From: Staphylococcus phage AH12
Strand: one strand, 5' to 3'
DNA: 64,000 nucleotides
Sequence record: OR455461.1
The notes below the pieces were generated by a model. It made no database searches. It was not told where the DNA came from and saw only the letters and a list, made by a program, of their open reading frames with translations. This document shows, one piece after another, positions 12,124-58,824 of the stretch. How positions within the stretch are numbered: position 1 is the first letter of the stretch; each line of letters starts with the position of its first letter. Both the position numbers and the translations under genes were made by a program.

Positions 12124-13881
12124 ATGAGTGAACATAAGAAAAATAAAAAGTTGGTATCAAATATAGTAGATGAAGATTCATACAAAGAAATAGCTGAATT
12201 AACAATTGATACTATTTCTGGAACATTAATGAAATCATTAGGTTATTATGGTTCTACTACAATATTTGATGACGGTATTAGTAGATTTGTAACTAAAGAC
12301 GGATATAATATTTTAAAGAATATTAGATTTCAAGACACTATTGCTGCAGCAATATTAAACTTCATTAAAGAAGTTTCATTATCACTAGTTAAAACTGTAG
12401 GTGATGGATCTACTTCTTCAGTAATTAATTCTCAAGCTATGTTTAAAGAAATTAATGCTAGATTAAAAGAAAAAGATGATTTAGGTGGATTTTCTCGTAA
12501 AGAAATTTCAGATTCATTAAATAACATGAAAGATTTAATTACAGAAGGTTTAAAAGATAAATCTATAGAAATTAATGAAGATAATTTCTATAAATTAAAA
12601 AATATTGCTACAGTATCAAATAATAATGATGAAAAATTAGGTGAAATGGTTTACGAAATTTTTTCTCAAATAGGTAAAAATGGTTTTATCACACCTGAAA
12701 TTTCAGACAATGAAGAAGATTACTACTCATTAACTAAAGGTATTGAGAAAAATAATGCTCTATTAGATAATAAATTAATTAATGATAAAGAAAATCATTC
12801 AGTTGATTTTAATAAACCTCATGTAGTAGTAGTTAATGATAAACTAAAAGAAGAAGACATTAAATGGTGTAGTGAGATTGTTACTTCATTACAACCTTTC
12901 TCTAGTAAAGGTTTAGTATTTGTTGCACCTAGCTTTTCTAAAGAGTTTATTAGTTGGGTAAAAGTATTATTAAATGCTAACCGTAATAATGGAGGTTTAA
13001 AAGCAGCTGAAGCTGAATTTGAATTATCTGTAGCATCTTACAGTAAAGACCCTGAAGAATTAGAAGATCTTGCAATATATGTAGGTTCAAATGTTATTGA
13101 TATGACAATAGATCCAGAAGATTTTAAAAAGAATATTGTTGATAAATTAGAGGATTCTAGAAGTAATCCATTAAATTGGATGGAATTCCAACAACAATAT
13201 GTAGGGCGTACTGAAAGATTTGTAATTGATTCTTTTAAAACTCAAATCATTGAAGGTCATGGTAATAAAACTGAAACTGGTTCTAGAAGATTGAAAGATC
13301 GTATTGCAGAAATAAATAACGAAATTAGTTATTTTGCAGATATGAATTCAGAACAAGCTATTGGAGAGATTACTACATTACAACGTAGAGCTAATTCTTT
13401 AAATAGTGCAATTGCTAAATTATATGTGGGTGGTTCTTCTCAAGCAGAAAAAATCTCTCGTAAATACTTAGTGGAAGATTCAGTGCATGCTTCTAAATCA
13501 GCATTGAAATTTGGTTATGTATCTGGAGGAAATCTATCAGTAAATAAAGTTATCAAAGATATTGATACAGAAAAATTATCTGATTTAGATAGATTAGTCC
13601 TAGACTTAATTGATATTTCTTCTCGTGAAGTATATCACAAAGTATTAGAAAACTTTAATAGATTTAAAAAACCTGAAATAGAATCTATGACTCAGACTTG
13701 TATTAGTAAAGATGCAATTTATAATATTAAAACTGCCGAATATGAAGATGATGTAGAAACTGATATTATAAACTCTGTAGAAACAGATATTAAAATATTA
13801 GAAACTACAATTAGTATCATTGGTTTAATTTCATTAAGTAACCAATTCTTAACTAATTCTTTAATTATTCCACAAGATTAA
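12124..13881 (+). CDS. GroEL/Cpn60-family chaperonin-like protein
   Basis: TLG..G...I.D, TKDG and VGDGSTSSV (compare GroEL AGDGTTTATV), and C-terminal GYVSGGN (compare GVVAGGG), all in GroEL order. Confidence 0.6.
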   Translation: MSEHKKNKKLVSNIVDEDSYKEIAELTIDTISGTLMKSLGYYGSTTIFDDGISRFVTKDGYNILKNIRFQDTIAAAILNFIKEVSLSLVKTVGDGSTSSVINSQAMFKEINARLKEKDDLGGFSRKEISDSLNNMKDLITEGLKDKSIEINEDNFYKLKNIATVSNNNDEKLGEMVYEIFSQIGKNGFITPEISDNEEDYYSLTKGIEKNNALLDNKLINDKENHSVDFNKPHVVVVNDKLKEEDIKWCSEIVTSLQPFSSKGLVFVAPSFSKEFISWVKVLLNANRNNGGLKAAEAEFELSVASYSKDPEELEDLAIYVGSNVIDMTIDPEDFKKNIVDKLEDSRSNPLNWMEFQQQYVGRTERFVIDSFKTQIIEGHGNKTETGSRRLKDRIAEINNEISYFADMNSEQAIGEITTLQRRANSLNSAIAKLYVGGSSQAEKISRKYLVEDSVHASKSALKFGYVSGGNLSVNKVIKDIDTEKLSDLDRLVLDLIDISSREVYHKVLENFNRFKKPEIESMTQTCISKDAIYNIKTAEYEDDVETDIINSVETDIKILETTISIIGLISLSNQFLTNSLIIPQD

Positions 13882-30937: not shown

Positions 30938-31093
30938 TCACCTCCTTTTTATTCTTCTTAATTTATTGAATCTTTTTCTTTTATTCTTAATTTTAATTTT
31001 TTCACTACGTTCTTTTTTAAGAATATCATTTGAAATATTTGACACTATAAGTAATACTAAAGATATTATGAAAACCATTACAATATAAATCAT
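30938..31093 (-). CDS. small membrane peptide (51 aa; one TM helix plus highly basic tail)
   Basis: Manual translation gives MIYIVMVFIISLVLLIVSNISNDILKKERSEKIKIKNKRKRFNKLRRIKRR. TAATG overlap with the upstream gene. Below the 60-aa cutoff of the track. Confidence 0.3.
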   Translation of the reverse strand: MIYIVMVFIISLVLLIVSNISNDILKKERSEKIKIKNKRKRFNKLRRIKRR

Positions 31094-31647
31094 TACAGTT
31101 CACCATCTTTAATTCTAATGAAGTTAACATTATTTTCTATTAATAAATCCATAACAGGTTCATAATCATCATAGAGTTCATTAAAGTAAACTGTTTTTAT
31201 TCCTGAAGCTATGATATTCTTAGCACAATTGTAACATGGTGAATGTGTGCAATATAAATCAAGTCCTTCTGTAGATATTCCTTTTTTACTCATTTTAGTC
31301 AACGCATTTATTTCTGCATGAACTTCATTAAGTAATGACCATTTATGATGAAGTTCTTGATCTTCGCATTCTATTAGCTCATCTCCATTAATTTCATACC
31401 AAACATTATCTTTTTTCTTAAATATTTCATTACAATTAACTTTACCAGGAAATGATCCATTTACTCCTATAGAATATATTGAAGAATTATCTGCAATAAT
31501 TGAACTAACTTTTTTAGCTGCACACTTACTCAATTCAGAAGCTTCTTTACAATATTTCATACATAATATGTTCCATTTATTGATTTCATAAAAATCATTA
31601 AATTCATTATCATTAAAATCTATTTTTGTAGTCATAATTAAATTCAT
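31093..31647 (-). CDS. dCMP (deoxycytidylate) deaminase
   Basis: HAEINAL ... CTHSPCYNCAKNI zinc-binding cytidine/dCMP deaminase signature. Confidence 0.75.
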   Translation of the reverse strand: MNLIMTTKIDFNDNEFNDFYEINKWNILCMKYCKEASELSKCAAKKVSSIIADNSSIYSIGVNGSFPGKVNCNEIFKKKDNVWYEINGDELIECEDQELHHKWSLLNEVHAEINALTKMSKKGISTEGLDLYCTHSPCYNCAKNIIASGIKTVYFNELYDDYEPVMDLLIENNVNFIRIKDGEL

Positions 31648-31656
31648 AAACTCCTT

Positions 31657-32268
31657 TTATTTTAAATTATTAACAAATTCAGTTATTTTCTCTATAATAT
31701 AATCATATGAATAAGCTTCATCATTATTTTCATAAGCGAGTAATTTTCCTTTATTTGCATATTCATCAGCTAATTCATTGTATTTTGAATCTTGGTCAAT
31801 TGATTTATTATGTCCTTTTGTCCATGATAAATTTATATTAAACCTCATTCCTAAATTATATTTTATATCATCTATTAATGACCATAGTTCTTTATTTTTT
31901 ATAGGAGCTCCTGTATTTGTTAACCAACCATTTTCTGACCATTTTGAAAGATATTTATTAAAACCATCAACAACATATCTAGAATCTGTTTTAATATTTA
32001 TATTTAATTTTCCCTCACCTTTATACGTTTCTATAGCAAATAGAACGGAAAATATAAATGATAATATTTCTAAATTGTTATTAGTTAATTTTTCATCCAT
32101 CACAGGTATTCCCATAGAATCAAAAGGTCTATCTTCTTCAGGCAAATATATACCTAACCCACCATATTTAGTTCCTTTAGATTTAACACCTTTTATTGCA
32201 CCATCACAATAAATTATTACTTTATCACTGTTTTTATCTAAATATTTTTTAAAGTCTATCAAATTCAT
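31657..32268 (-). CDS. RNase HI-like ribonuclease H
   Basis: RNase H motifs in order: YCDGA, TNNNLEILS (TNN.aEL), DSRYVV, W..NGW. Confidence 0.65.
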   Translation of the reverse strand: MNLIDFKKYLDKNSDKVIIYCDGAIKGVKSKGTKYGGLGIYLPEEDRPFDSMGIPVMDEKLTNNNLEILSFIFSVLFAIETYKGEGKLNINIKTDSRYVVDGFNKYLSKWSENGWLTNTGAPIKNKELWSLIDDIKYNLGMRFNINLSWTKGHNKSIDQDSKYNELADEYANKGKLLAYENNDEAYSYDYIIEKITEFVNNLK

Positions 32269-35367: not shown

Positions 35368-37626
35368 TCATTCAAATATAAAATTAGTTGAACCTGTATC
35401 ATATACTTTATTTATATAAGTTTTATTTTTATCAATCTTATGTCTTATATAACTATCATTACTTGTACCTTTTAAGAAAGTCTTTTCAATAGGTAATTCA
35501 TTACCTACTTTATACATTCCAAATTTCTCAAATTTATAACATGTATATGAATCAGATTTTACATTAAAAGTTAGACTTGGAAATATCTTTTTAATTTTAA
35601 TTAAATCTGCGTCTGTATTTAAAAGTGAAATAAAATTATGTGATACATTAGTCTTATTATTAAAAGAAAATGCACAAATAATATAACCTTTATAATAAAG
35701 AGCGAAGAAGTCAGAATCTTTCCCATAAAAGTCTTCTGTTGAATGATTTTCAAAGAAATCTTTAAATGTAAAGAATCCCATAGATTTAATTTTTATATCA
35801 CCATAATCTAATACAGAATAATCATCTTTAAATAGTAACAATTGATGTAAGAATTTAGCATAATTCTTACCATCAATTCTTTTAGTTTCATTACGGATAT
35901 CATCATCAAATAAATTAAGAAGATGGTACCCTTTTTCTTTAAGTTCATTGTATTTCTTAAGTTGATGATATTTAGCATTTATATCAGATTTAGTTTCATT
36001 GGAATGATATTTAACTCCATTAACTTCAATAGCCAATTTATACTTTTCAGAGAGTATATCAATTTCTTTACCATCTAACAAATCTCTATTCTGTCTTTCT
36101 ATATCAAAACCTAAATATTTCATTTCATCAGATACTTTTGATTCAGCAATAGAAGATTTTCCATTACTACATGACGGACAATTAATACCTTTTTCTATTA
36201 AATCATTTGCATTTATTTTAAATTCACCATGGTCTTTACATATTACTATTGATCTTTCATATTTATCGTTAGGTCTAAATTTACTCATATTATATTTATC
36301 TTTACCATGTTTAATATTTGCAAGTGTTTGATATACTTCAGTCTTTTCTTCTTCAGTATAATCAAAGTTATTAAGATTTTTAATCTTAGTATTAAGTGAC
36401 TTTATACGTTTATACTCTTTTAATTCCTGAACAGAATATTTTCTCTTATTCTTTATTTTTGGTATTGATACTGATACTGAAACTATTTCTTTTTGATCTT
36501 CATTTGAATCTTTAACTTTATCTTTAACTTTATCTTTAACTTTATCTTTAACTTTATCTTTAATATTATCCTTAACTTTATCAATATCAAAATTATTAGA
36601 GATTTCTCTTTCTATATTTTCTTTCTTCATATTCTTTTTAATTTTCGGTGTTTTCTTTATACCTTTAAGTAATTTCTCAGTTTCTTCTTCACGTTTCTTT
36701 TTATTATTCTCTACGATTTTTTCCCAGTCTTTATCTATACTAAGTTTTTCTTCTTCACATTTAGGACAAGCTAATTTTTTATCAAATAACATTTCGTGTA
36801 TAGATGTTTTAAATTCACCATGTTTTTCACATATAATTGGTTGAATATCTTTTTCGTTAATAGGTCTAAATTTAGAAAAATCATAGTTTGTATTATTAGC
36901 TTTATTTAGAGCTAAATCATAAATATGGTTTTTCTCATCTTCTGTATAATCTTTAGTCAATTCTAAAAATAAATCAGGATCTATGTCTTTTAAATTATTA
37001 AAGATATTTTCAGTAGTTGCAACTTCTCCATCTTTCTTACAACCTGGACAGCCATCAAGATTATTTATAAGAAAATTTTTAACTGAACTTTTAAAGCTAC
37101 CATGTTTTTCACAGACTATATTTTGTTTAGTATTTATACTGTTCGGTTTAAAATTAGATACATCATAAGGAGAATATAGTCCATATTTAGCTATTGTAAT
37201 ATTATAGAAGAATAAATATTTTTCTTCTTTACTTTTATTCTTTAAATATCTAACTTTATCTTTCATTTTAGTAGAGCTATTTAAGAAAAATGTATAAGGT
37301 TCTAAAAATTCATTAGGATCTTCTACCATAGGAGATTCAAGTCGCTTAGTTCTTTCTTTATTTTTTAAAAATTTCTCAGCGTTAACTTTATTTTCATTTT
37401 CTCCTGATTCAATTATTCTTAAACAGCTTTCAAAATAATTATCGAACCATTCTTTACTTTTAGTATATTTAATCATTCTTATTTTAAAATCTTCAGATAT
37501 TTTTCCTTTATATGTTACTTTTACTTTATCTTCATTTATTTGATAATCTTTATCATTATCTATATTAAATGTATAGTCATTACCTAATTTTTCTTTAAAG
37601 CTTTCTCTTAATTTTTTACCTAACAT
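35368..37626 (-). CDS. homing-endonuclease-like protein: three CxxHG...CPxC zinc-ribbon modules, KDKV tandem repeat, Vsr/DUF559-like nuclease domain
   Basis: Repeated CEKHG(S/E)FK ... CP(G/K/S)C modules three times. LAIEVNGVKYHS motif shared with the other HE-like ORFs. Confidence 0.5.
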   Translation of the reverse strand: MLGKKLRESFKEKLGNDYTFNIDNDKDYQINEDKVKVTYKGKISEDFKIRMIKYTKSKEWFDNYFESCLRIIESGENENKVNAEKFLKNKERTKRLESPMVEDPNEFLEPYTFFLNSSTKMKDKVRYLKNKSKEEKYLFFYNITIAKYGLYSPYDVSNFKPNSINTKQNIVCEKHGSFKSSVKNFLINNLDGCPGCKKDGEVATTENIFNNLKDIDPDLFLELTKDYTEDEKNHIYDLALNKANNTNYDFSKFRPINEKDIQPIICEKHGEFKTSIHEMLFDKKLACPKCEEEKLSIDKDWEKIVENNKKKREEETEKLLKGIKKTPKIKKNMKKENIEREISNNFDIDKVKDNIKDKVKDKVKDKVKDKVKDSNEDQKEIVSVSVSIPKIKNKRKYSVQELKEYKRIKSLNTKIKNLNNFDYTEEEKTEVYQTLANIKHGKDKYNMSKFRPNDKYERSIVICKDHGEFKINANDLIEKGINCPSCSNGKSSIAESKVSDEMKYLGFDIERQNRDLLDGKEIDILSEKYKLAIEVNGVKYHSNETKSDINAKYHQLKKYNELKEKGYHLLNLFDDDIRNETKRIDGKNYAKFLHQLLLFKDDYSVLDYGDIKIKSMGFFTFKDFFENHSTEDFYGKDSDFFALYYKGYIICAFSFNNKTNVSHNFISLLNTDADLIKIKKIFPSLTFNVKSDSYTCYKFEKFGMYKVGNELPIEKTFLKGTSNDSYIRHKIDKNKTYINKVYDTGSTNFIFE
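36501..36575. repeat. 12-bp coding tandem repeat (CTTTATCTTTAA x ~6) encoding (KDKV)n
   Basis: Direct tandem repeats visible in the sequence, inside 35368..37626. Confidence 0.7.
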
Positions 37627-37680
37627 ATCATGTTCATCTCCATATTATAATATTAAGATTATATTTTAATAATCTCAAAT

Positions 37681-37698
37681 TTATAATATATATTTAAA
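37681..37698 (-). promoter_or_regulatory. class-A motif TTTAAATATATATTATAA (minus strand)
   Basis: About 55 nt upstream of the HE-like gene start at 37626. Confidence 0.35.
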
Positions 37699-37714
37699 AC
37701 GTAAAATAAAATAA

Positions 37715-37744
37715 TCCCAATATCTAATTTAATAGATATTGGGA
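37715..37744. terminator. palindromic element variant (TCCCAATATCTA atttaa TAGATATTGGGA)
   Basis: 12-bp stem, same family. Confidence 0.45.
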
Positions 37745-37758
37745 AATATGTATAAATT

Positions 37759-37806
37759 AACCCTAACCTCTTCGACTAATTCAAAATCAATCTGTAGGTT
37801 AGGGTT
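37759..37806. other. long-range hairpin AACCCTAACCT ... AGGTTAGGGTT with 26-nt loop
   Basis: 11-bp stem. Stem sequence related to the 35328 variant. Confidence 0.4.
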
Positions 37807-38180
37807 AATGTTACTTTTACGAGAAAAGTATAAAGTTGCTTTAATAATTTTTTATATCCTATAAAGCATAAGAAGGATTAAAGAAACCAATATATGCATG
37901 GAACATATTAGGAATCTTATAGTGATATTTTAATAGTCTAGTTTTTCTTATATTAGGAACTAAAACTAGAAAACCTAAAGTGTATTAAAGTCAGATACTT
38001 ATCACAAATTAATGTAAAATAAGTCCTCTTTAATACTTCTTTTTTAATACTTTTTTACAACTAAAGATATGCCTTAACTTTAGTTGAATCTAATAAATTA
38101 AGTTTGGCATATCACTTAATTTATATTTTATTTATAGCAGGTCTGCAGCCAAGCTATAAGGATGATTAATCCTATAGGGT

Positions 38181-38265
38181 TGTTCCTAATGAGATTCGAA
38201 CTCATAACCTACAGATAAATTTTAATTCATAAATCTGTACGCTCTGACCATTGAGCTATAGGAAC
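38181..38265 (-). tRNA. tRNA-like gene with aberrant anticodon arm (16-20 nt loop); isotype not assignable
   Basis: Canonical acceptor stem (GTTCCTA/TAGGAAC), D-arm GCTC-AATGGTCA-GAGC and T-arm ATGAG-TTCGAAT-CTCAT. The anticodon stem TACAGAT/ATCTGTA encloses a 16-nt loop. Confidence 0.45.
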
Positions 38266-38625
38266 ATAGAAATTTAAAAAAAAATTAAAAGAGTACATTT
38301 ATCATCTATGCACTCTTTTAAGTAAATAAATATATAATAATATCTATTAATTTTTAATTATACGTAAGGAGGCGTATGGATTTCTATTTAAAACCATGAC
38401 ATATTAAAAATAGAAACAAGAGAAACCAAAGAAACATTTTTAAACCAACAACGAGTGACAAAGTAAGTTATAATAGAATTTAATCTATTATATTTTTTAG
38501 TTAAATCAAAAACTAAAAAAAATCTATAATAATTTGACGAGAATCATTATAGATTTATACTATATAGTTAATTAATATTTTTAAATAAAATTTTTTTAAT
38601 AAATAGGAATTTTAGACCAAAAAAA

Positions 38626-38695
38626 AGCTTATCCGAGGGATCGAACCCCGGACACATGATGAAAATCATTGCTCTACCAACTGAGCTAGATAAAC
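38626..38695 (-). tRNA. tRNA gene (short anticodon arm: 4-bp stem and 6-nt loop; isotype uncertain), followed by T7 run
   Basis: Acceptor stem GTTTATC/GATAAGC, D-arm GCTC-AGTTGGTA-GAGC, T-arm CGGGG-TTCGATC-CCTCG. The anticodon region is ATGA-TTTTCA-TCAT. Confidence 0.5.
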
Positions 38696-38742
38696 TTTCT
38701 TCATTATTATAATATATGTTTATATTTCACTATATTACGCTT

Positions 38743-38792
38743 TTAATAAATATAATCTTCTATATCAATTTCATTTTGTTTAATTGTCATAT
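38743..38792 (-). repeat. 50-bp duplicate of the beta-prime gene 3' end (encodes MTIKQNEIDIEDYIY*), differing from copy 40063-40112 only at 3 wobble positions
   Basis: Direct comparison of the two 50-mers: identical except for ata/att, gac/gat and atc/ata, all synonymous. Confidence 0.7.
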
Positions 38793-40027
38793 ATTCCTGA
38801 ATTATGATAATACAATTTTCTTTTATTATCAAAAATTTTCATGGGTTCTTTGATTTCTATTTTATCTTTCATTTTTAAATAATGACTATATTTCATATTA
38901 TCTAAAGAATTTGTTTTTACTTCTTTTTTGATAATATTTTCTAATTTTTCTTTTAAATTATAATTTTCATTCTCATATAAAAATACAGTAGAAAATTTAT
39001 TTTCTAAAAGAAATAGAGCTTTTTCTTGATGATAATATTTATCTTTAAATATTTCTGAATGCCAGTAAGCTCCATTACATTCGATAGCTATTTTTTCTTT
39101 AATATCATCAATATATAAAATTATATCAATTTCTCTTTTACCAATAAATTTATTATTTTCAATATGATAACTATAATTTTCGTTGTCTAAAATTTCTTTT
39201 AATTCATCCAATACATTAATTTCAAATAATGAACGTTGTTTAGAATTACATTTACAACCTCTAGGACGATATCTATCATAATTTATATAATCTTTAAAAA
39301 TAGTATTACATTTATTACATCTAAATGAATATATAAATTCTGAATTTATACCTTTAAATTCATCATAAGTGTTTAAAATGTCTATATCATATTTTTTTAA
39401 TAAATTCTTTAAATTATAATAAGTTTTATTTTTTCTAATTTTATTTAATTTTTCTTTTATGGTGTCATTTTTCATAGGATTGTCTACACCATATCTATTG
39501 ATAAAAGATTCTTTTATTATATTTGACATATTAGGTATTTCATAAATATTATTAGCATCAAATTTATTTTTTATTTGATCTTTAATATTTATGAAATTCC
39601 CATTATTTTTTAAAGTATTATGTGATTTAGAAGATATTACTTTATTTTTCATAGGATTGTCTACACCATATTTATCAATAAAAGCTTTCTTTCTTTTAAT
39701 ATTAAAATCTTCTATTTTATTCATATTGCTTGTTCCATACTTATCTTTTAAAGTTTTTCTTCCTTTTTCATATTTTTCAGGATCTTTCATAGAACAACTT
39801 CTAGAACAATATACTCCTAATTTATGTTTATTTTTTACAAATTTAACTTTATTTTTTCTACAATACTTACAGTAAATTACAGAATTTATATCATTTCTTA
39901 TATAGTACATTCTTTCAGATAAATTTACATCTTTAAATTCATTTAAAAAATCAGTGTATTTAATAATATCATTTTTATATTTATTTAAAGCAGGTCCTTT
40001 TATTTTCTTAATTTGTTCTAATTGCAT
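38780..40027 (-). CDS. homing-endonuclease-like protein with three (K/R)YGVDNPMKN repeats and a Vsr/DUF559-like nuclease domain
   Basis: AIECNGAYWHS motif. Repeated DKYGVDNPMKN modules. Its stop codon lies inside the duplicated 50-mer. Confidence 0.5.
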   Translation of the reverse strand: MQLEQIKKIKGPALNKYKNDIIKYTDFLNEFKDVNLSERMYYIRNDINSVIYCKYCRKNKVKFVKNKHKLGVYCSRSCSMKDPEKYEKGRKTLKDKYGTSNMNKIEDFNIKRKKAFIDKYGVDNPMKNKVISSKSHNTLKNNGNFINIKDQIKNKFDANNIYEIPNMSNIIKESFINRYGVDNPMKNDTIKEKLNKIRKNKTYYNLKNLLKKYDIDILNTYDEFKGINSEFIYSFRCNKCNTIFKDYINYDRYRPRGCKCNSKQRSLFEINVLDELKEILDNENYSYHIENNKFIGKREIDIILYIDDIKEKIAIECNGAYWHSEIFKDKYYHQEKALFLLENKFSTVFLYENENYNLKEKLENIIKKEVKTNSLDNMKYSHYLKMKDKIEIKEPMKIFDNKRKLYYHNSGIYDN

Positions 40028-40047
40028 ATTATCACCCTTTCTAAAAT

Positions 40048-40064
40048 GATAATATATATTTATT
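40048..40064 (-). promoter_or_regulatory. class-A-like motif AATAAATATATATTATC (minus strand)
   Basis: 20 nt upstream of the 40027 start. Overlaps the beta-prime stop. Confidence 0.3.
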
Positions 40065-40458
40065 AATAAATATAATCTTCGATGTCTATTTCATTTTGTT
40101 TAATTGTCATATCATGGAAAGACTTCATAGAGCTTGTTACAATTGCTTGAGCTACCTGATTGACTAATAAACCAATATTTTCTATACCTAATTTGTAAGG
40201 GAGTTCTCCTGCACATTTACTACAGATATCTTCACTTGCACAATACATAGGACTTCTGAAGTTCAATACTTTCCCAATATGCTCATCTACATTTGAAGTA
40301 GTTAACAGTGTTAATTGACCTTTTCTTCCTGAATTATCTTCAAAATATCTATAAAGTAAAAGATTCGCATTATCTTTAGTTAAAGTTAATTTTAATGTAT
40401 GTTTTGTTCTACAATCAGAACCTTGTTTATCTAATACAGTTGTTTGGAAAGCAGACAT
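40063..40458 (-). CDS. multisubunit RNAP beta-prime-like subunit, distal C-terminal exon
   Basis: RSPMYCASEDICSKCAG (compare RSPLTCE..GVCAKCYG) and GLLVNQVAQAIVTSSMKSFH (compare [21 protein letters not shown]). The reading frame is open upstream to 40479. Confidence 0.65.
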   Translation of the reverse strand: MSAFQTTVLDKQGSDCRTKHTLKLTLTKDNANLLLYRYFEDNSGRKGQLTLLTTSNVDEHIGKVLNFRSPMYCASEDICSKCAGELPYKLGIENIGLLVNQVAQAIVTSSMKSFHDMTIKQNEIDIEDYIY

Positions 40459-40482
40459 AAGTTTTTTAGCTTGATCATTTTA

Positions 40483-40603
40483 TTATCTATATTTTATTAT
40501 AGATTAGACTATATCTTATGAATTTAATCATTTCTATATTTAGTCGTTGAACAACTTAATAAAGTTGATGCTAGTTAGTTTTTAACATTCTAGCAATTAA
40601 TAG
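40483..40603 (-). mobile_element. group I intron-like element B (P TTAATTGCTAG, Q CTAGCATC, R GTTCAACGACTAAAT, S GATATAGTCT)
   Basis: All four core elements present in order on the minus strand. The P/Q pairing GCTAG:CTAGC covaries relative to GCTGA:TCAGC in the other four copies. Confidence 0.5.
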
Positions 40604-40644
40604 AATTTATTGTGAGCATCTAATTTACCCACCTTCTTGAGTCA

Positions 40645-40816
40645 TTTATGTTAATCTATATTAATTTAATATAGATCAGACTATATCAAAAACTCTTTAT
40701 GAGTTTAATTATATTTAGTCGTTGAACAATCATTCTGATTGATGCTGATTAAGTTTATCTCTTCTCAGCAATTAATAATTTTTCTATTATTACATTACTA
40801 TAATAAAGGGCATTCA
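40645..40816 (-). mobile_element. group I intron-like element A, with 5' region ATGCCCTTTATTATAGTAATGTAATAATAGAAAAAT shared with the intron at 45210
   Basis: P, Q, R and S elements in order (rc of 40764-40775, 40741-40752, 40713-40727, 40678-40688). The upstream exon ends ...GGTATATGA. Confidence 0.5.
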
Positions 40817-41617
40817 TATACCTAAAGCACGTCCAGCTGAACCAGCAGTCATAATGTCTCCAAACATATATAGTTCTTCTGGATCAATTCCATCAGCTAA
40901 AGAACTCTTAGCAATACGTATTTTACTAGGATCAGCGAAGTTTTTATTTGCTCCACGTATTAATGCAGTTAACTTGAAGTTATTTCCAAAACTACCTCTT
41001 GATCCACTATCATAAATATCAAGGTCTGCTAAACCTTCTAATTCTTCTTTACTTAACTTAATTAATTCTTTTTCAATAGCACTAATAGCATTCAATTCTT
41101 CACCAGGAGTATTTAATGCTTTACCATATTTCTCTAGTAATTCTTCTTTCTTTTGTTTAACTTTATCAGGAGCAACCATCATTGTAGTTGTCAAACTAGA
41201 ATTAATAAATCCTGCTATAGAGAAACCAAGCCATTGAAGTTTATCAATATACATATTCATATCTTTAGTTGTAATAACATCATTAAGTAATAAACTAGAT
41301 AACTCAGATTGTAGATTTCCTACACCTGATCCTCCCATATCTTTATTCATATATCCTATAATAGGTCCTATTTTATTGTCTAATATAAATTTATTAAATA
41401 TATATCTTCCAACTGTTGTTCTTTCATCTTTACTATTATAAACTAAATCTTTTTTAAGTTTAAATCTATCGCTAGGATTAAACATTGGTTGTGTATTTTG
41501 TCTAAATGCAAATAATTCTTTAAGTTTATCAAGAGTAATATCTTCTTTTTTTATACTTAATAAAGTTGATACTTCTTTCTCAGATAAATCTTTTTTATCA
41601 TAAGTCATATTAACCAA
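40814..41617 (-). CDS. multisubunit RNAP beta-prime-like subunit, proximal C-terminal exon
   Basis: DSGSRGSFGNNFKLTALIRG (compare [21 protein letters not shown]) and TAGSAGRALG (compare STHGARKGLADT). Confidence 0.65.
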   Translation of the reverse strand: MVNMTYDKKDLSEKEVSTLLSIKKEDITLDKLKELFAFRQNTQPMFNPSDRFKLKKDLVYNSKDERTTVGRYIFNKFILDNKIGPIIGYMNKDMGGSGVGNLQSELSSLLLNDVITTKDMNMYIDKLQWLGFSIAGFINSSLTTTMMVAPDKVKQKKEELLEKYGKALNTPGEELNAISAIEKELIKLSKEELEGLADLDIYDSGSRGSFGNNFKLTALIRGANKNFADPSKIRIAKSSLADGIDPEELYMFGDIMTAGSAGRALGI

Positions 41618-51627: not shown

Positions 51628-52782
51628 TTGAATAACGAAGATGGTAAAGTTTTAATAACGGTTCCCCATAGAACATATATACCTAATAAAGGGATGGGTC
51701 CAATAAATAAACCCTTTTATGTTAATAAAGATATTTTAAAATTGTATGACTTAATGAATATACAATATAAGAGAATAACTGAGTATGATTATGTAGATAT
51801 AAATGAAGATGGAAAATATGAAGTTGAAGAAATTAAATCAGTAGAAGATTATATTGAAATGAAGTACTTACAGGTTAATGAAATACTTAAACAGATAAAA
51901 ATTATATCTAATGACAGTGAAAAGATTAATAACGAAATGGAAGACAAATTTAAAAAAGTTAAAGAAAATTTAATCGATACTGACAATCTTAATGAATATT
52001 TAAGTGACCTTGATAAATTTAAATATAATATAGAAGATAAAAAATTAGATCTTCAATCTGAAAAAGAAGATGTTATTTCAACAATAGAAGATATGAATAA
52101 TAAATTGAGTAATATGAAAGATACTTTATCAGATTTTGAAAAAGTAAGAGAACAGTTCAATAGTAATTATAATAATACAATGAGTCTTAATGATGAAATG
52201 CAGAATCTAAGTGAAACTGCAAATTATATTAAGAATATGGAAAATGATGTAGTTAAGGTTGAAGAAAAATTAAATCTTATAAAAAATAAATCTGAAGAAC
52301 TAAAATCTTCACAAGATTCATTTAATAATAAAATAGATGATTTTGAAAATAAATTATTAGATTATAAAGAAAATCTTAAAAATTATATGATAGAAAATGC
52401 TGAAAAGTATAAAGGTGATCCAGGTATGCAAGGTCCAAGAGGTGAACCTTTCAAATATTCCGATTTTACTCAAGAGCAATTAGCTGAGTTAAAAGGAGAT
52501 AAATTCACATACGAAGATTTTACTCAAGATCAATTAGACTTATTAAAAGGTGAAAAAGGTGATAAATTAACTTTTAGTGATTTAACTACTGAAGATAAAA
52601 AAGAACTAAAAGGTGATAAAGGGGATAAATTAACTTTTAATGATCTGTCTAGTGAAGATAAAGAAGAATTAAAAGGTGAACAAGGAGATAAGGGTGATTC
52701 AGCTCCTCCTAAAGTATTCACTAGAGATGAGTATGATACTTTAGAAGAAAAAGATCCTAATACGCTTTACTTTATTATATAG
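51628..52782 (+). CDS. tail-fibre-like protein with coiled-coil region and collagen-like/KGDKGDK repeats
   Basis: GDPGMQGPRGEPF, then repeated LKG(D/E)KGDKLTF.DL units. The N-terminal ~55 aa is shared with 56573..57136. Confidence 0.5.
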   Translation: MNNEDGKVLITVPHRTYIPNKGMGPINKPFYVNKDILKLYDLMNIQYKRITEYDYVDINEDGKYEVEEIKSVEDYIEMKYLQVNEILKQIKIISNDSEKINNEMEDKFKKVKENLIDTDNLNEYLSDLDKFKYNIEDKKLDLQSEKEDVISTIEDMNNKLSNMKDTLSDFEKVREQFNSNYNNTMSLNDEMQNLSETANYIKNMENDVVKVEEKLNLIKNKSEELKSSQDSFNNKIDDFENKLLDYKENLKNYMIENAEKYKGDPGMQGPRGEPFKYSDFTQEQLAELKGDKFTYEDFTQDQLDLLKGEKGDKLTFSDLTTEDKKELKGDKGDKLTFNDLSSEDKEELKGEQGDKGDSAPPKVFTRDEYDTLEEKDPNTLYFII

Positions 52783-57156: not shown

Positions 57157-58824
57157 ATGGCAACTACTAACTTTTATAAAGTGAAAGTATTAGATGAAAA
57201 AATAATTCCATTTTTAGGTTATAAAGAATACGGTCCTAGAGAAAATGTTATTCTTTCTGGTAGTGATTTAGCTAGTTTAAAACAAGCTGGTTGGACTATT
57301 ACTGATGTTACACCTTTACCGGAAACTGGAAAAATTAAATATGATAGACGTACTATTTATTTCAAAACTGAAGGAGAACAAGGTAAATTTATTAATGTTC
57401 CTTTCTATGTAAATCCTGTTGATGCTCGTGATGTATTTGGTTTACTTAAACTTGATTTAATCAAATTATCTGATGAAACAGTTGTAAGTACACATAATGT
57501 TAAAGATATTAAAAATGAAATATTAAGTATACCTACTTCTGATCTTGAAATTGGTGAAGAATATAAATTAAGATTATACTTCCCTAAAGATGCAGATGAA
57601 GATTATGATATAGCTATTTCTGAAGGTCATAAAGATCTTTTTGAAAGAGTTCATGATGAAGTAACTATTAAAGTAAAAGAATATGGTAAAATTACAGGTC
57701 GTCTTGTTCAATTACAACAAGATATTAATGTATATAAAGAATCTGTATTACCTTTAGAGAAAATTGTAGGATATAAAGACTTTGATTCTAAAGAGGTAAC
57801 TCCTATAAGTAAAGAGAATTTATTACAATTATTATCAGTTGAAGTTAGTGATACTAGCTTTGCTAAATTTGAACGTAATAAAAATCGCTTATTCTTCTAT
57901 AGTAAAGAAGGAAAAATAGTTGTTAAAGTTATTGAAAAGAATATTCAAGACAATATCATTAACTTTAACGTACGTATTTTAAGTGAAGAAACAGCACAAA
58001 AAGAAATTGATAAAAAACTTGAATATTCTGTTTATAATCCTGAAGATGGAAAATTTGAAAGCATTAATCAAACTAAAAGTATAACTGTTACTCCAGAGAC
58101 AGTTAATATTGAAGCTGAAGGAACTCAAAAATTAGAAGTTACTACTGAACCAGAAGGAAGAAAAGTGAGCTTTGAGTTAAAAGACGGTTCTGAATTTGCT
58201 TCATTAGATAATAAAGGAAATATTACTGGTATTTCTGAAGGAACTGCAACTGTTACAGTTAAATCAGATAATGTTTCTAAAGATGTAAAGGTTAATGTAA
58301 GCCGTTTAAAGACTAAGAGTCTAACTGTTACTCCAGAAGAAATTAACATAGATGCAGAATCAACTCAACAGTTAGACGTTAAAATTCAACCAACTACAAA
58401 CTCTGTAAGTTATTCTATTACTGAAGGATCTGAATTTGCTTCAGTTAATAACAGTGGTCTTGTAACTGCTAAAGCTGTAGGAACTGCTAAAGTTAAAGTA
58501 AGTTCTGATTCCATTAGTAAGACAGTTAATGTTAATGTAACTAGAGTAAAAACTAAAACTCTAAATGTTACTCCTAATAGTGTTGATATTAAAGATAATG
58601 AAACACAACAATTAACGGTAACTACGGATCCTAAAGGAAACCCTGTAAGCTATTCTATCTCTGAAGGATCTGAATTTGCTTCAGTTAATAATAGTGGTCT
58701 TGTAACCGCTATATCTGAAGGAACTGCTAAAGTTAAGGTTGTTTCTGATAGTGTAAGTAAAGATGTTAGTATTAACATATCTACTTCACAAGTAGAAGAA
58801 TCTCCTGAAGAACCTTTAGAATAA
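57157..58824 (+). CDS. virion surface protein with four Big_2 (bacterial Ig-like) repeats
   Basis: Four ~90-aa repeats containing ITEGSEFASVNNSGLVTA ... GTAKVKV. Confidence 0.6.
   Translation: MATTNFYKVKVLDEKIIPFLGYKEYGPRENVILSGSDLASLKQAGWTITDVTPLPETGKIKYDRRTIYFKTEGEQGKFINVPFYVNPVDARDVFGLLKLDLIKLSDETVVSTHNVKDIKNEILSIPTSDLEIGEEYKLRLYFPKDADEDYDIAISEGHKDLFERVHDEVTIKVKEYGKITGRLVQLQQDINVYKESVLPLEKIVGYKDFDSKEVTPISKENLLQLLSVEVSDTSFAKFERNKNRLFFYSKEGKIVVKVIEKNIQDNIINFNVRILSEETAQKEIDKKLEYSVYNPEDGKFESINQTKSITVTPETVNIEAEGTQKLEVTTEPEGRKVSFELKDGSEFASLDNKGNITGISEGTATVTVKSDNVSKDVKVNVSRLKTKSLTVTPEEINIDAESTQQLDVKIQPTTNSVSYSITEGSEFASVNNSGLVTAKAVGTAKVKVSSDSISKTVNVNVTRVKTKTLNVTPNSVDIKDNETQQLTVTTDPKGNPVSYSISEGSEFASVNNSGLVTAISEGTAKVKVVSDSVSKDVSINISTSQVEESPEEPLE

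Follow-up and report, generated by a model that had tools for sequence, protein, structure and literature searches.

The window (the whole stretch of 64,000 nucleotides that was analysed) comes from a Staphylococcus jumbo phage of the Machias/PB50/S6 group, whose members possess AR9-like split RNA polymerases. BLAST searches demonstrated that phages PB50 and Machias are 92.8% and 91.6% identical to the window, respectively, and share its gene order. A eukaryotic or organellar source, and with it a ciliate-type suppressor tRNA, was considered and dropped after BLAST pointed to Staphylococcus jumbo phages. The G+C content of the window is 24%, the AUA and UUA codons are frequent, and the open reading frames (ORFs), read with the standard code, are long and uninterrupted. 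The gene for the virion RNA polymerase beta' subunit and a homing-endonuclease-like gene enclose a minus-strand non-coding region of about 1 kb, made up of hairpins and tRNA shapes. Homing-endonuclease-like genes are located on both sides of this tRNA-like locus. The features of the locus are listed in Table 1.

Table 1. Features of the tRNA-like locus, listed from 5' to 3' on the minus strand (positions in the window)
Feature	Position	Strand	Description and evidence
Putative promoter, TATATTAT box	38709..38716	-	MarsHill/AR9-type early-promoter consensus, 13 nt 5' of tRNA2
tRNA2	38626..38695	-	70-nt tRNA-Lys(UUU)-like element; Rfam 45.8 bits, E 1.5e-6
tRNA2 truncated anticodon arm	38655-38670	-	A-AUGA-UUUUCA-UCAU
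tRNA2 T arm and 3' acceptor strand, then U8	38617..38654	-	Putative intrinsic-terminator-like site; terminator scan
Hairpin and U-run	38514..38557	-	Homologue of the terminator after the RNA polymerase beta' gene in S6-type phages; alignment A4
Leader hairpin UAUAAUAGA-loop-UCUAUUAUA	38469..38492	-	Conserved; alignment A4 with S6, SA1 and others
Leader hairpin AUACG-CCUCCUUA-CGUAU	38360..38377	-	Anti-Shine-Dalgarno-like loop; alignment A4
Hairpin directly 5' of tRNA1	38289..38317	-	Followed by tRNA-Asn(GUU) in relatives
tRNA1	38181..38265	-	Intact acceptor/D/T cloverleaf with U(-1), G1-C72 and A73; Rfam 60 bits and covariation
tRNA1 anticodon arm	38210..38239	-	7-bp stem 38233-38239/38210-38216, 16-nt loop 38217-38232
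Core structured RNA	38053..38180	-	~128 nt, four hairpins; covariance model R1, 148.6 bits
Core hairpin H1	38159-38173	-	
PK1 5' side, H1 loop AAUC	38164..38167	-	Pairs with GAUU 38087-38090
Core hairpin H2	38134-38157	-	
Invariant H2 loop GCUGCAGA	38142-38149	-	
Core hairpin H3	38093-38124	-	
H3 loop AUAUGCC	38106..38112	-	Complementary to the H4 loop
PK1 3' side, GAUU in the H3-H4 linker	38087..38090	-	
Core hairpin H4	38058-38086	-	
H4 loop GGCAUAU	38067..38073	-	Partner of the H3 loop (loop-loop pairing)
Hairpin hp6	37985..38033	-	RNAalifold: 7 pairs with compensatory change
Hairpin hp7	37937..37973	-	Invariant stem UCUAGUUU/AAACUAGA, variable CCU-containing loop including GUUCCUAAU
Hairpin hp8, AUGCUUUA ... 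UAAAGCA	37837..37869	-	By-eye reading; in all lineages including L040
Terminator-like hairpin CCCUAACCU ... AGGUUAGGG	37760-37805	-	Terminator scan; conserved in alignment A1
Terminator-like hairpin and U-run	37703-37744	-	Terminator scan; conserved in alignment A1

Two tRNA-like genes with textbook acceptor, D and T arms had been described between 38181 and 38695 in the initial annotation. Both were recovered on the minus strand by the Rfam tRNA model RF00005 (gathering score 29), with 60.0 bits for tRNA1 (E 1.8e-10 in the 64-kb window) and 45.8 bits for tRNA2. The tRNA likeness of both elements is far above chance. tRNA1, labelled ‘tRNA-???’ by ARAGORN, features a 7-bp acceptor stem, a 4-bp D stem and a 5-bp T stem with the T loop UUCGAAU, in the sequence as well as in the ViennaRNA fold. 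Its anticodon stem UACAGAU/AUCUGUA closes the 16-nt loop UUAUGAAUUAAAAUUU, exactly as first described, and the folding z-score of the element is −4.1. The 4-bp stem and 6-nt loop attributed to tRNA2 are those drawn by ARAGORN; ViennaRNA gives 5 bp and a 4-nt loop. The observation that neither element has a standard 7-nt anticodon loop (16 nt versus 6 or 4 nt) is correct, and the combination of such a loop with U33 and a purine at position 37 is found in neither tRNA1 nor tRNA2.

An orthologue of tRNA1 was found at the same site in 10 of the 10 genomes or contigs surveyed, namely in phages Machias, PB50, S6, MarsHill, Madawaska, PALS_2, DC4, LY01 and SA1 and in the divergent Logan contig L040. 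These represent about six independent lineages, all within one phage clade, and include phages reported to be tRNA-free. MarsHill, LY01 and DC4 keep the element, although ARAGORN at default settings makes no call there. In nine aligned sequences, 96.8% of the cells of the cloverleaf are paired and 12 of the 21 pairs have changes on both sides, while slid-partner controls reach 34–44%. The acceptor and T stems are 100% paired, with covariation in five of the seven acceptor pairs. U(-1), G1-C72, A73, the T-loop motif UUCRA and the GG of the D loop are conserved; only the anticodon arm is variable. Mismatches in all arms and loss from some lineages, the marks of a decaying pseudogene, are not what tRNA1 displays.

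The anticodon loop of tRNA1 measures 7, 7, 7, 8, 16, 34 and 34 nt across seven lineages, and the insertion in the arm amounts to 13 nt in the window, 31 nt in Machias and PB50, or 0 nt. The 34-nt loop of Machias and PB50 forms an extended hairpin, and the insertion there is a plain lengthening of the anticodon helix. The loops read AGUAAAU in the S6 clade, AACAAAU in LY01 and UUUUAAU in L040, and SA1 has the 8-nt loop UUUGAAUA. The near-universal U33 is replaced by G33 in S6-type copies and by A33 in LY01. ARAGORN assigns seven anticodons to the seven lineages: Ile(UAU), Arg(UCG), Gln(UUG), Leu(UAA), Leu(CAA), the 4-base UGAA and Stop(UUA), of which Arg(UCG) in Machias and Gln(UUG) in PB50 were obtained in intron mode, each with an intron of 29 nt. 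No anticodon or identity is shared by all orthologues. Because the orthologues differ in loop length and anticodon while the acceptor, D and T arms persist through compensatory changes, tRNA1 is not regarded as a decoder. The loop of L040 is canonical-looking (U33, A37, anticodon UUA) and Leu anticodons occur in both S6 and LY01 orthologues; tRNA1 may have had a decoding ancestor, or may retain residual decoding in some lineages.

The second element differs in its history. ARAGORN gives tRNA2 a 2-base ‘anticodon’. When aligned to the tRNA-Lys(UUU) of mycobacteriophage Snenia, tRNA2 lacks 3 nt in the anticodon arm, and the arm is 3 nt shorter than normal under either fold. Among the relatives, tRNA2 occurs in Machias and PB50 only, that is, in three near-identical genomes including the window, and the element and its flanks are equally conserved (98.5–99.2% in the three near-identical copies). 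tRNA2 is most likely a decayed tRNA gene derived from tRNA-Lys(UUU), the shape of which may still undergo processing.

The 3' side of tRNA1 is occupied by a structured RNA, referred to here as the core RNA. No spacer separates A73 of tRNA1 (38181) from the core (38180) in any lineage. Covariance model R1 finds a single copy in the window and one copy per genome. Changes on both sides were found in 21 of the 33 nested pairs and 96.3% of the cells are paired, compared with 27–45% in slid-partner controls. Alignment A8 had been fitted to the model, and the covariation counts are thereby biased towards the proposed structure. Several helices hold G-U pairs that fit the minus-strand RNA only. The core region has no Rfam family match, either at the gathering threshold or at E<=10, cmscan of 37500-38900 having returned only tRNA matches and noise.

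Two tertiary pairings are predicted within the core. The pseudoknot PK1, between the H1 loop and the H3-H4 linker, is 100% paired in 10 sequences, and its form in L040, GGUC:GACC, contains two compensatory pairs. The pairing of the H3 and H4 loops comprises 7 bp in nine sequences, with one A-U to G-U change, and in L040, the H3 loop has GGGC instead, matched by GCCC in the H4 loop; for both pairings, the compensatory support comes from this one divergent sequence. The H2 loop carries an invariant palindromic CUGCAG, only a hint at possible self-association. In L040, the structured RNA is followed on its 3' side by a second, degenerate tRNA-like element (52.4 bits), and tRNA shapes therefore stand on both sides of it. 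The initial annotation missed that tRNA1 makes up the 5' portion of a larger conserved structured RNA, which is predicted to continue beyond the annotated interval to approximately position 37700. In the outer part of this unit, hairpin hp6 is dispensable, being missing in Madawaska and shorter in LY01 (alignment A1), and two terminator-like hairpins (37703..37805) close the non-coding unit.

Upstream of tRNA1, the GCCUCC motif of the 38360..38377 hairpin is kept in S6, MarsHill, LY01, Madawaska and L040. A normal tRNA-Asn(GUU) is located 5–7 nt 5' of the tRNA1-like element in Machias, PB50, S6, PALS_2 and Madawaska and is absent from the window. The tandem arrangement of tRNA-Asn and tRNA1 looks like the layout of a polycistronic tRNA precursor. 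The TATATTAT motif was taken from an earlier study (bioRxiv 10.1101/2020.12.14.422802). This 8-mer is not over-represented in the window as a whole (40 copies versus 35 expected); ORFs of 100 aa or more leave 15% of the window uncovered, and 18 of the 40 copies fall in this fraction; nine copies are immediately 5' of same-strand ORFs. The case for the copy 5' of tRNA2 as a putative promoter is weak. Sigma-70-type promoters are at background level in this AT-rich DNA, and neither ARAGORN nor Rfam revealed a tmRNA at the locus.

The family formed by tRNA1 and the core is known from one Staphylococcus jumbo phage clade only. A DNA-pattern search of IMG/VR returned one chance match in a coding region and nothing else, and among metagenome contigs the same kind of search picked up a single partial contig resembling S6, besides two chance matches. 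In GTDB genomes, the strict pattern had no matches and the relaxed pattern had 42, about the number estimated for chance, none of them above 19 bits with R1. A long intergenic region is missing from the syntenic site of the Bacillus phages BpSp and Internexus, 16 IMG/VR jumbo-phage loci contain no tRNA and gave weak, incomplete R1 matches that were judged spurious, and five ENA contigs (L036-L039 and L041) lack the module of tRNA1 and core. The downstream endonuclease-like ORF, used as a protein query, yielded no useful further contigs. Two candidates were rejected: a BLAST match in Listeria phage LPJP1, which is AT-rich chance similarity, and the ‘tRNA-Phe’ of DC4 as a second odd tRNA, which is inside a coding region and has no Rfam support.

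We consider it about evenly probable that tRNA1 is a non-decoding tRNA-shaped domain on a structured RNA, processed by tRNA enzymes, and that tRNA2 is a decayed tRNA-Lys derivative. RNase P, RNase Z and the CCA-adding enzyme read the minihelix of acceptor and T arm and the elbow, not the anticodon arm. In the proposed scheme, selection would retain the parts of the cloverleaf read by tRNA-processing enzymes (the acceptor with U(-1), G1-C72 and A73, the T arm and the GG elbow of the D arm), and the anticodon arm of tRNA1 would drift freely and accept insertions. The region would be transcribed as a tRNA-operon-like precursor, host RNase P would cleave 5' of the tRNA1 domain, and RNase Z or exonucleases would work on its 3' side. 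As a result, the tRNA1 domain could set the 5' end of the structured RNA, or could remain as a nuclease-resistant, elbow-bearing 5' cap. In several copies of tRNA1, the discriminator is directly followed by CC; work on the B. subtilis enzyme indicates that CC in this place might hinder RNase Z.

The suggestion of the initial annotation that these elements are pseudo-tRNAs used as integration or processing signals divides accordingly into two parts. A role as a processing signal appears favoured for tRNA1, and possibly for tRNA2, in view of the conservation, the tandem tRNA-Asn and the fused RNA. Use as an integration site finds no support at the locus, which belongs to a lytic jumbo phage and where no repeats and no integrase were found. 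The further suggestion of a tRNA-like regulatory RNA is compatible with the locus.

More tentatively, and with a probability that we put clearly below even, tRNA1 and the doubly pseudoknotted core might constitute a new class of tRNA-fused RNA with an activity of its own, in which the tRNA shape would do more than mark a site of cleavage and would serve to attract the ribosome or host enzymes that act on tRNAs. The same caution extends to the candidate activities of the core, namely a ribozyme, a ligand- or protein-binding domain or a self-associating scaffold similar to ROOL and GOLLD. The novelty of the locus would lie in a core RNA that belongs to no Rfam family and is apparently fused to a non-decoding tRNA shape under selection, and a catalytic, ligand-binding or self-assembling core would make it a new RNA class.

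GOLLD and ROOL RNAs are encoded by phages beside tRNA islands, and some GOLLD RNAs have tRNAs within a linker (PMC12286853). Two abundant long non-coding RNAs are produced near the tRNAs of S. aureus phage K (PMC9241854). The RNA described here is likewise phage-encoded, non-coding, structured, tRNA-adjacent and covarying, with pseudoknots and loop-loop contacts. However, neither GOLLD nor ROOL was matched at the locus (cmscan of 37500-38900, E<=10), the core has ~128 nt and the whole unit about 0.45–0.6 kb with dispensable modules, and the tRNA shape is a fixed non-decoding 5' domain and not a neighbouring functional tRNA. The locus could offer a tractable model of ~215 nt for why GOLLD/ROOL-type phage RNAs accompany tRNAs.

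The TMERs of murine gammaherpesvirus 68, in which a tRNA-like element is followed by hairpins and split off by tRNase Z (PMC4838037), would be the closest analogy for the proposed mechanism. In both systems, a non-decoding viral tRNA-like element abuts a downstream RNA domain. TMERs, however, are eukaryotic Pol III products with hairpins that are Dicer-cut pre-miRNAs, whereas the downstream domain is pseudoknotted here, the virus is bacterial and the processing is proposed from the sequence. The locus might represent a bacterial-virus counterpart to the tRNA-like processing modules of herpesvirus TMERs and of the MALAT1 mascRNA.

The tRNA gene cluster of phage T4 also gives rise to two stable small RNAs that are not tRNAs, species 1 and 2 (RNA C and D); they are transcribed together with the tRNAs and freed by the tRNA-processing machinery. 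To our knowledge, they are not fused to a full non-decoding cloverleaf. YrlA bacterial Y RNAs, some of them phage-encoded, combine a tRNA mimic (T arm, D arm and acceptor-like stem) with another module. The likeness to tRNA1 and its core consists in a tRNA mimic joined to a second module in one non-coding RNA; YrlA differs in placing the tRNA-like part inside the molecule, with the two RNA ends building the Ro-binding stem. No Y-RNA match was found in Rfam at the locus (37500-38900, E<=10), and no Ro60/Rsr gene among those window proteins that were scanned, a non-exhaustive set.

The genome papers on Machias, Madawaska, MarsHill and DC4 take a different view, according to which both elements would be tRNA genes in free decay without a present function. 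We consider this unlikely. It agrees with the report of a ‘pseudo-tRNA Leu’ in DC4 (PMC10638138), with the turnover of tRNAs at the locus (tRNA-Asn present or absent, tRNA2 in one sub-lineage, a decayed Asn-like copy in L040), with the flanking homing-endonuclease-like genes and with the resemblance of tRNA2 to a tRNA-Lys with a small deletion. Free decay, however, predicts mismatches across all arms, whereas the 21 stem pairs of tRNA1 are ~97% paired, 12 of them with compensatory changes, in intergenic DNA that is otherwise barely alignable. U(-1), G1-C72, A73, UUCRA and GG are kept, variation is confined to the anticodon arm, the element persists in MarsHill, LY01 and DC4 though the default ARAGORN run calls nothing, and it is invariably joined to a covarying RNA. 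The label of a degenerating pseudo-tRNA would fit tRNA2, not tRNA1.

Pseudo-tRNAs have been annotated at the same loci before: ‘tRNA-Asn (pseudo)’ CPT_Machias_173 of Machias is the orthologue of tRNA2, and ‘pseudo-tRNA-Leu 72,405-72,475’ of DC4 and ‘tRNA-Ser’ of SA1 are orthologues of tRNA1. In the corresponding papers (Machias, Madawaska, DC4 and SA1), such elements are regarded as unrelated leftovers on which no selection acts. These papers do not mention that one of the elements occurs in every member, MarsHill with its ‘no tRNAs’ among them, and they make no reference to its covariation or to the structured RNA fused to it. Phage tRNAs are usually seen as codon supplements or as anti-defence, and odd ones are dismissed as pseudogenes. 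Here, one ‘pseudo-tRNA’ appears clearly selected for shape, not for decoding, and is joined to a compact, covarying RNA absent from databases, which would correct the annotation of a group of therapeutic-candidate Staphylococcus phages.

Non-decoding tRNA shapes might also serve as decoys that soak up readers of the tRNA body, such as tRNA-cleaving immune nucleases, T-box or other elbow readers, an explanation that we regard as rather improbable. Tracts kept in the acceptor, T arm and elbow beside a free anticodon arm are equally apt for any reader of the tRNA body, an early-promoter-like box stands 5' of tRNA2, and there is ample documentation of defences that target tRNAs and of phage tRNA countermeasures (PMC10264068, PMC11555353, PMC12851939, PMC13056530). 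The known phage countermeasures are, however, functional tRNAs with point changes in the loop and not non-decoders, anticodon nucleases require the anticodon loop, which is destroyed in these elements, and the obligatory fusion with a structured RNA would be left unexplained.

The initial annotation also raised small intervening sequences in the anticodon loop. If the elements were working decoders, removal of a mini-intron would turn tRNA1 into, for example, tRNA-Ile(UAU) or an ochre suppressor (UUA), and tRNA2 would decode with its 6-nt loop. ARAGORN in intron mode does give tRNA-Ile(UAU) with an 11-nt intron at the canonical position 37/38, only via a shifted stem register. The canonical stem register reads A-U-UUA-[13 nt]-A-U, like the intact L040 loop UUUUAAU, and a genome of 24% G+C makes AUA and UUA codons frequent. 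The intron idea nevertheless fails for tRNA1, because the intron solutions of the orthologues yield no common mature tRNA (the same procedure results in seven different anticodons), and tRNA2 carries a deletion. G33 in S6-type copies and A33 in LY01, an insertion of 13, 31 or 0 nt that merely extends a helix in Machias and PB50, and the lack of any group I intron, other intron family or other Rfam match (E<=10) also count against decoding, and the intact long ORFs in the standard code leave a suppressor unneeded. A true tRNA intron would be expected at a constant position and with a splicing signal, in bacteria a group I fold and in archaea and eukaryotes a bulge-helix-bulge motif. We know of no splicing endonuclease for such mini-introns in bacteria and of no decoding role for a 6-nt anticodon loop there. 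Taken in full, decoding by these elements appears very improbable.

That the conserved hairpins work as DNA, for instance as an origin of replication, as a site for packaging or as the target of a homing endonuclease, is hardly credible: the locus does lie between two homing-endonuclease-like genes and has the palindromes CTGCAG and GATTAATC in two invariant loops, but many helices contain G-U pairs, which the opposite strand or a cruciform would turn into A-C mismatches, the L040 H1 loop CUGGUC loses the DNA palindrome and retains the pseudoknot pairing, and all elements, including the tRNA-Asn of relatives, are on one strand between terminator-like hairpins.

The partial acceptor-stem copies (GTTCCTAAT) that had been pointed out in the spacer turned out to be at chance level. 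The window contains 27 one-mismatch copies of GTTCCTAAT versus 23.3 expected, and one further exact copy, at 37952-37960 on the minus strand. This copy falls in the loop of a conserved hairpin, and the corresponding loop of Machias is GUCCCUAAU despite the same acceptor stem.

The 64,000-nt AH12 window (OR455461.1) has a G+C content of 24% and is densely coding; its genes include pieces of a split multisubunit RNA polymerase, tail and head-tail proteins, an amidase/SH3 lysin and homing-endonuclease-like ORFs. A BLAST search with the region 37000-41000 returned Staphylococcus jumbo phages, namely vB_StaM_PB50 (92.8% identity), Machias (91.6%) and the more distant MarsHill, Madawaska, S6, PALS_2, DC4, LY01 and SA1, and the match to Bacillus AR9-like phages was confined to the polymerase gene. 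Gene order is common to the window, Machias and PB50. Two tRNA-like elements, designated tRNA1 and tRNA2, lie within one gap free of ORFs. The 415-aa ORF that separates tRNA2 from the RNA polymerase beta' gene fragment occurs in the window only and looks like a recent insertion, because Machias and PB50 carry no gene at that position. The box upstream of the 752-aa ORF is unchanged in all 10 of the 10 phages aligned. The virion RNA polymerase beta' mid-subunit is split into two ORFs about 355 nt apart (40063-40458 and 40814-41617, minus strand), and the same gene is annotated as two exons in Machias. The window has no group I intron hit at or above the Rfam gathering score.

Features of the tRNA-containing non-coding unit and its surroundings (window positions unless a sequence handle is given; L001, Machias; L040, divergent Logan contig)
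Feature	Position	Strand	Remarks
Conserved homing-endonuclease/HNH-like ORF, 752 aa	35368-37626	(-)	DUF723, phrog_3339, phrog_559; 3' of the non-coding unit
Gap without ORFs	37627-38779		about 1.15 kb
Box TTTTAAATATATATTATAAA	37680-37699		upstream of the 752-aa ORF; holds the published early-promoter consensus
Two terminator-like hairpins	37703-37805	(-)	end of unit, just before the next gene's invariant early-promoter-like box
Hairpin hp8	37837-37869	(-)	kept in all lineages
Hairpin hp7	37937-37973	(-)	stem invariant
Hairpin hp6	37985-38033	(-)	covaries; missing in Madawaska
Core RNA	38053-38180	(-)	about 128 nt
Hairpin H4	38058-38086	(-)	9 bp
Hairpin H3	38093-38124	(-)	11 bp
Hairpin H2	38134-38157	(-)	8 bp, invariant loop GCUGCAGA
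Hairpin H1	38159-38173	(-)	AGGAU-UAAUC-AUCCU
tRNA1	38181-38265	(-)	
tRNA-Asn(GUU)	L001 4372-4443; L005 1389-1461		corresponding window site about 38266-38288
Leader hairpin	38360-38377	(-)	AUACG-CCUCCUUA-CGUAU; loop resembles the anti-Shine-Dalgarno end of 16S rRNA
tRNA2	38626-38695	(-)	70 nt
Homing-endonuclease-like ORF, 415 aa	38780-40027	(-)	phrog_3339, DUF7487, weak REase_MTES_1575
Virion RNA polymerase beta' gene			one flank of the gap
Second tRNA-like element of L040	L040 1343-1410	(+)	68 nt, degenerate

With the Rfam tRNA model (gathering score 29), tRNA1 scored 60.0 bits and tRNA2 45.8 bits (E = 1.8e-10 and 1.5e-6, respectively, for the whole window). The sequence of tRNA1 is GUUCCUA-UA-GCUC-AAUGGUCA-GAGC-G-UACAGAU-[UUAUGAAUUAAAAUUU]-AUCUGUA-GGUU-AUGAG-UUCGAAU-CUCAU-UAGGAAC-A; the acceptor stem, D arm and T arm are all perfect, and the anticodon stem of 7 bp bears a 16-nt loop, exactly as the initial annotation had it. 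Its description of the tRNA2 anticodon arm (AUGA-UUUUCA-UCAU, 4 bp with a 6-nt loop) was equally accurate, with 5 bp and a 4-nt loop as the ViennaRNA alternative. ARAGORN reported two minus-strand genes (38178-38266 and 38625-38696) of unassigned identity with a two-base "anticodon".

Homologues of tRNA1 were found in the syntenic DNA of Machias, PB50, S6, MarsHill, Madawaska, PALS_2, DC4, LY01 and SA1. A further orthologue lies on the divergent contig L040 (logan ERR10857033, a public sequencing run), reached through the adjacent polymerase fragment (82% amino-acid identity) in a protein-level search. In an alignment of nine distinct sequences, from about six independent lineages of a single clade, 96.8% of cloverleaf stem cells are standard pairs, and both sides have changed in at least one lineage in 12 of the 21 pairs. 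The acceptor and T stems are 100% paired, five of the seven acceptor pairs covarying; sliding the 3' partners as a control left 34–44% paired. U(-1), G1-C72, A73, the T-loop UUCRA and the D-loop GG are retained.

The anticodon arm is ignored by RNase P, RNase Z and the CCA-adding enzyme, which recognise the acceptor/T-arm stack, the elbow, U(-1), G1-C72 and A73. Comparison of the orthologues indicates that selection acts on the tRNA-shaped body of tRNA1, not on its anticodon, and that a larger structured RNA has tRNA1 as its 5' domain. Since selection keeps what the tRNA enzymes read while the ignored anticodon arm drifts, the favoured role is that of a processing or stabilising "handle" on the fused RNA. 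Of the functions proposed initially, a processing signal is thus the one favoured by the conservation pattern, whereas the intron option is not borne out by the orthologues. A decoy for host factors that read the tRNA body would be compatible with the same conservation pattern, its sole support.

The genome papers on these phages report one or two "pseudo-tRNAs" and regard the tRNA genes as degenerating for lack of selection; they list no tRNA in MarsHill, "tRNA-Asn" in S6, PALS2 and Madawaska, "two pseudo tRNA-Asn" in Machias, "tRNA-Ser" in SA1 and "pseudo-tRNA-Leu" in DC4, with no mention of a structured RNA at the locus (bioRxiv 10.1101/2020.12.14.422802; PMC10638138). Free decay of tRNA genes fits tRNA2 but not tRNA1. 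The anticodon loop of tRNA1 varies from 16 nt in the window to AGUAAAU (G33) in the S6 clade, AACAAAU (A33) in LY01, UUUGAAUA (8 nt) in SA1 and UUUUAAU in L040. In Machias (L001 4273-4375) and PB50 (L002) it is a 34-nt insertion that lengthens the anticodon stem by a near-perfect 10+3-bp helix; the "wobble" position differs between the two (C or U), and the window has three separate deletions inside this insertion.

The model in which tRNA1 is an intron-bearing or unusual decoder is contradicted by these orthologues. In its intron and relaxed modes, ARAGORN read the window element as "tRNA-Ile(UAU) with an 11-nt intron", for which a shifted stem register was needed, and the orthologues as Arg(UCG)+29 nt, Gln(UUG)+29 nt, Leu(UAA), Leu(CAA), a four-base UGAA and Stop(UUA). 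The small intervening sequence envisaged in the initial annotation is therefore not supported: the orthologues share no mature tRNA, no Rfam intron family was found at tRNA1, and no bacterial enzyme is known for such mini-introns. Together these points argue against both an intron-bearing decoder and a pseudogene in free decay. A decoding ancestor is plausible, because the loop of L040 has a canonical appearance (UUA, U33, A37) and that of the window is similar when written in the canonical register, AU-UUA-[13 nt]-AU.

The core begins right after the discriminator A (38181) and aligns across all relatives at about 78–86% identity, with nearly invariant hairpin loops. Across nine phage sequences, pairing is retained in 96.9% of cells, and 15 of 40 pairs have changed on both sides. 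When L040 was included, aligned and thus fitted to a covariance model derived from those nine sequences, two-sided change was seen in 21 of 33 nested pairs and pairing in 96.3% of cells (slid controls, 27–45%). The loops of H3 (AUAUGCC) and H4 (GGCAUAU) are complementary in 9 of 9 phages, with one A-U to G-U change, and L040 has GGGC and GCCC in their place. A pseudoknot pairs AAUC of the H1 loop with GAUU of the H3-H4 linker (GGUC and GACC in L040). Both predicted tertiary pairings are supported, by way of the one divergent contig L040. Single-sequence folding of tRNA1 with the core (z = -3.8) recovered the cloverleaf, H1 and H2 and, in the H3/H4 region, took the loop-loop complementarity as a nested helix; the comparative data favour H3 and H4 instead. 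A role of the conserved elements at the DNA level is disfavoured, because several helices contain G-U pairs compatible with the minus-strand RNA only and all elements are coherent in strand.

The core is present in a single copy per genome; no copies were found in IMG/VR, in GTDB representative genomes or beside the polymerase gene in more distantly related jumbo phages, and the structured region 3' of tRNA1 had no match in Rfam 15 even at E ≤ 10. We thus interpret tRNA1 and the core as a structured phage RNA, absent from Rfam, joined to a tRNA-like domain that does not decode. The nearest precedents are the GOLLD and ROOL phage RNAs, which lie beside tRNA islands and in some GOLLD RNAs contain embedded tRNAs (PMC12286853), and TMERs, in which a tRNA-like part with hairpins is cut by tRNase Z (PMC4838037); the likeness is in mechanism and genomic habit, not in family. 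The core did not qualify as a GOLLD or ROOL member.

The invariant H2 loop (38142-38149, minus strand) holds the 6-nt palindrome CUGCAG, a possible site of RNA-RNA self-association or protein binding. In the window, SA1 and Madawaska, the loop of hp7 includes GUUCC, the complement of GGAAC at the 3' acceptor end; Machias has GUCCC at this place, and LY01 and the S6 clade have GACCC. The complementarity may be fortuitous or may reflect an alternative pairing. The RNA holds two copies of UUCCUAAU(AU), one in that loop (37952-37960) and the other 45 nt downstream (37907-37915, minus strand).

A normal tRNA-Asn(GUU) is present in Machias, PB50, S6, PALS_2, Madawaska and the Logan contig L035, and is cleanly missing from the window, MarsHill, LY01, DC4 and SA1. 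It lies 5–7 nt upstream of the tRNA1-like element in the five named phages that carry it (L035 ends before that point), an arrangement like that of a polycistronic tRNA precursor. The second element of L040 (Rfam 52.4 bits; ARAGORN "Asn(AUU)") has a D loop without GG and a T arm near-identical to that of S6 tRNA-Asn. It is located 3' of the structured RNA, just before the terminator, so tRNA shapes bracket the structured RNA there. The leader upstream of tRNA1 forms conserved hairpins, one with CCUCCU in its loop. The GCCUCC motif is kept on a different stem (GGG...CCC) in S6, MarsHill and Madawaska and is present in L040 too. The opposite strand of the leader hairpin carries a strong AAGGAGG followed by ATG, with an ORF of only 7 codons (1 codon in S6).

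Outside the window, tRNA2 was found only in Machias and PB50, at 98.5–99.2% identity including the flanks, and hence gives no comparative signal. Its closest other matches are phage tRNA-Lys genes. The D arm, variable loop (GUGUC vs. GGGUC) and T arm agree with mycobacteriophage tRNA-Lys(UUU), and the anticodon arm is short by one stem pair and one loop base; E. coli tRNA-Lys aligns likewise. Thus tRNA2 appears to be a tRNA-Lys, most simply read as a decayed gene, and may still be cut out by RNases P and Z or serve as a decoy. U8 follows it, and downstream of it lies a hairpin with homology to the terminator of the beta' gene in S6-type phages. The TATATTAT box 13 nt upstream, a published early-promoter consensus, is a weak candidate for its promoter, because the octamer is not enriched in the AT-rich window, yet it is concentrated in intergenic DNA upstream of ORFs.

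The published 94-nt "tRNA-Phe" of DC4 (L017 1144-1237; DC4 record 52143-52236) is probably a false positive, since it lies inside an apparent long coding sequence, the homologue of the window Big_2-domain ORF 57157-58824, and gives no match to the tRNA model of Rfam at E ≤ 1. The window also encodes a Cpn60/TCP-1-type chaperonin-like protein (12124-13881, plus strand), a dCMP deaminase (31093-31647, minus strand) and an RNase H (31657-32268, minus strand).
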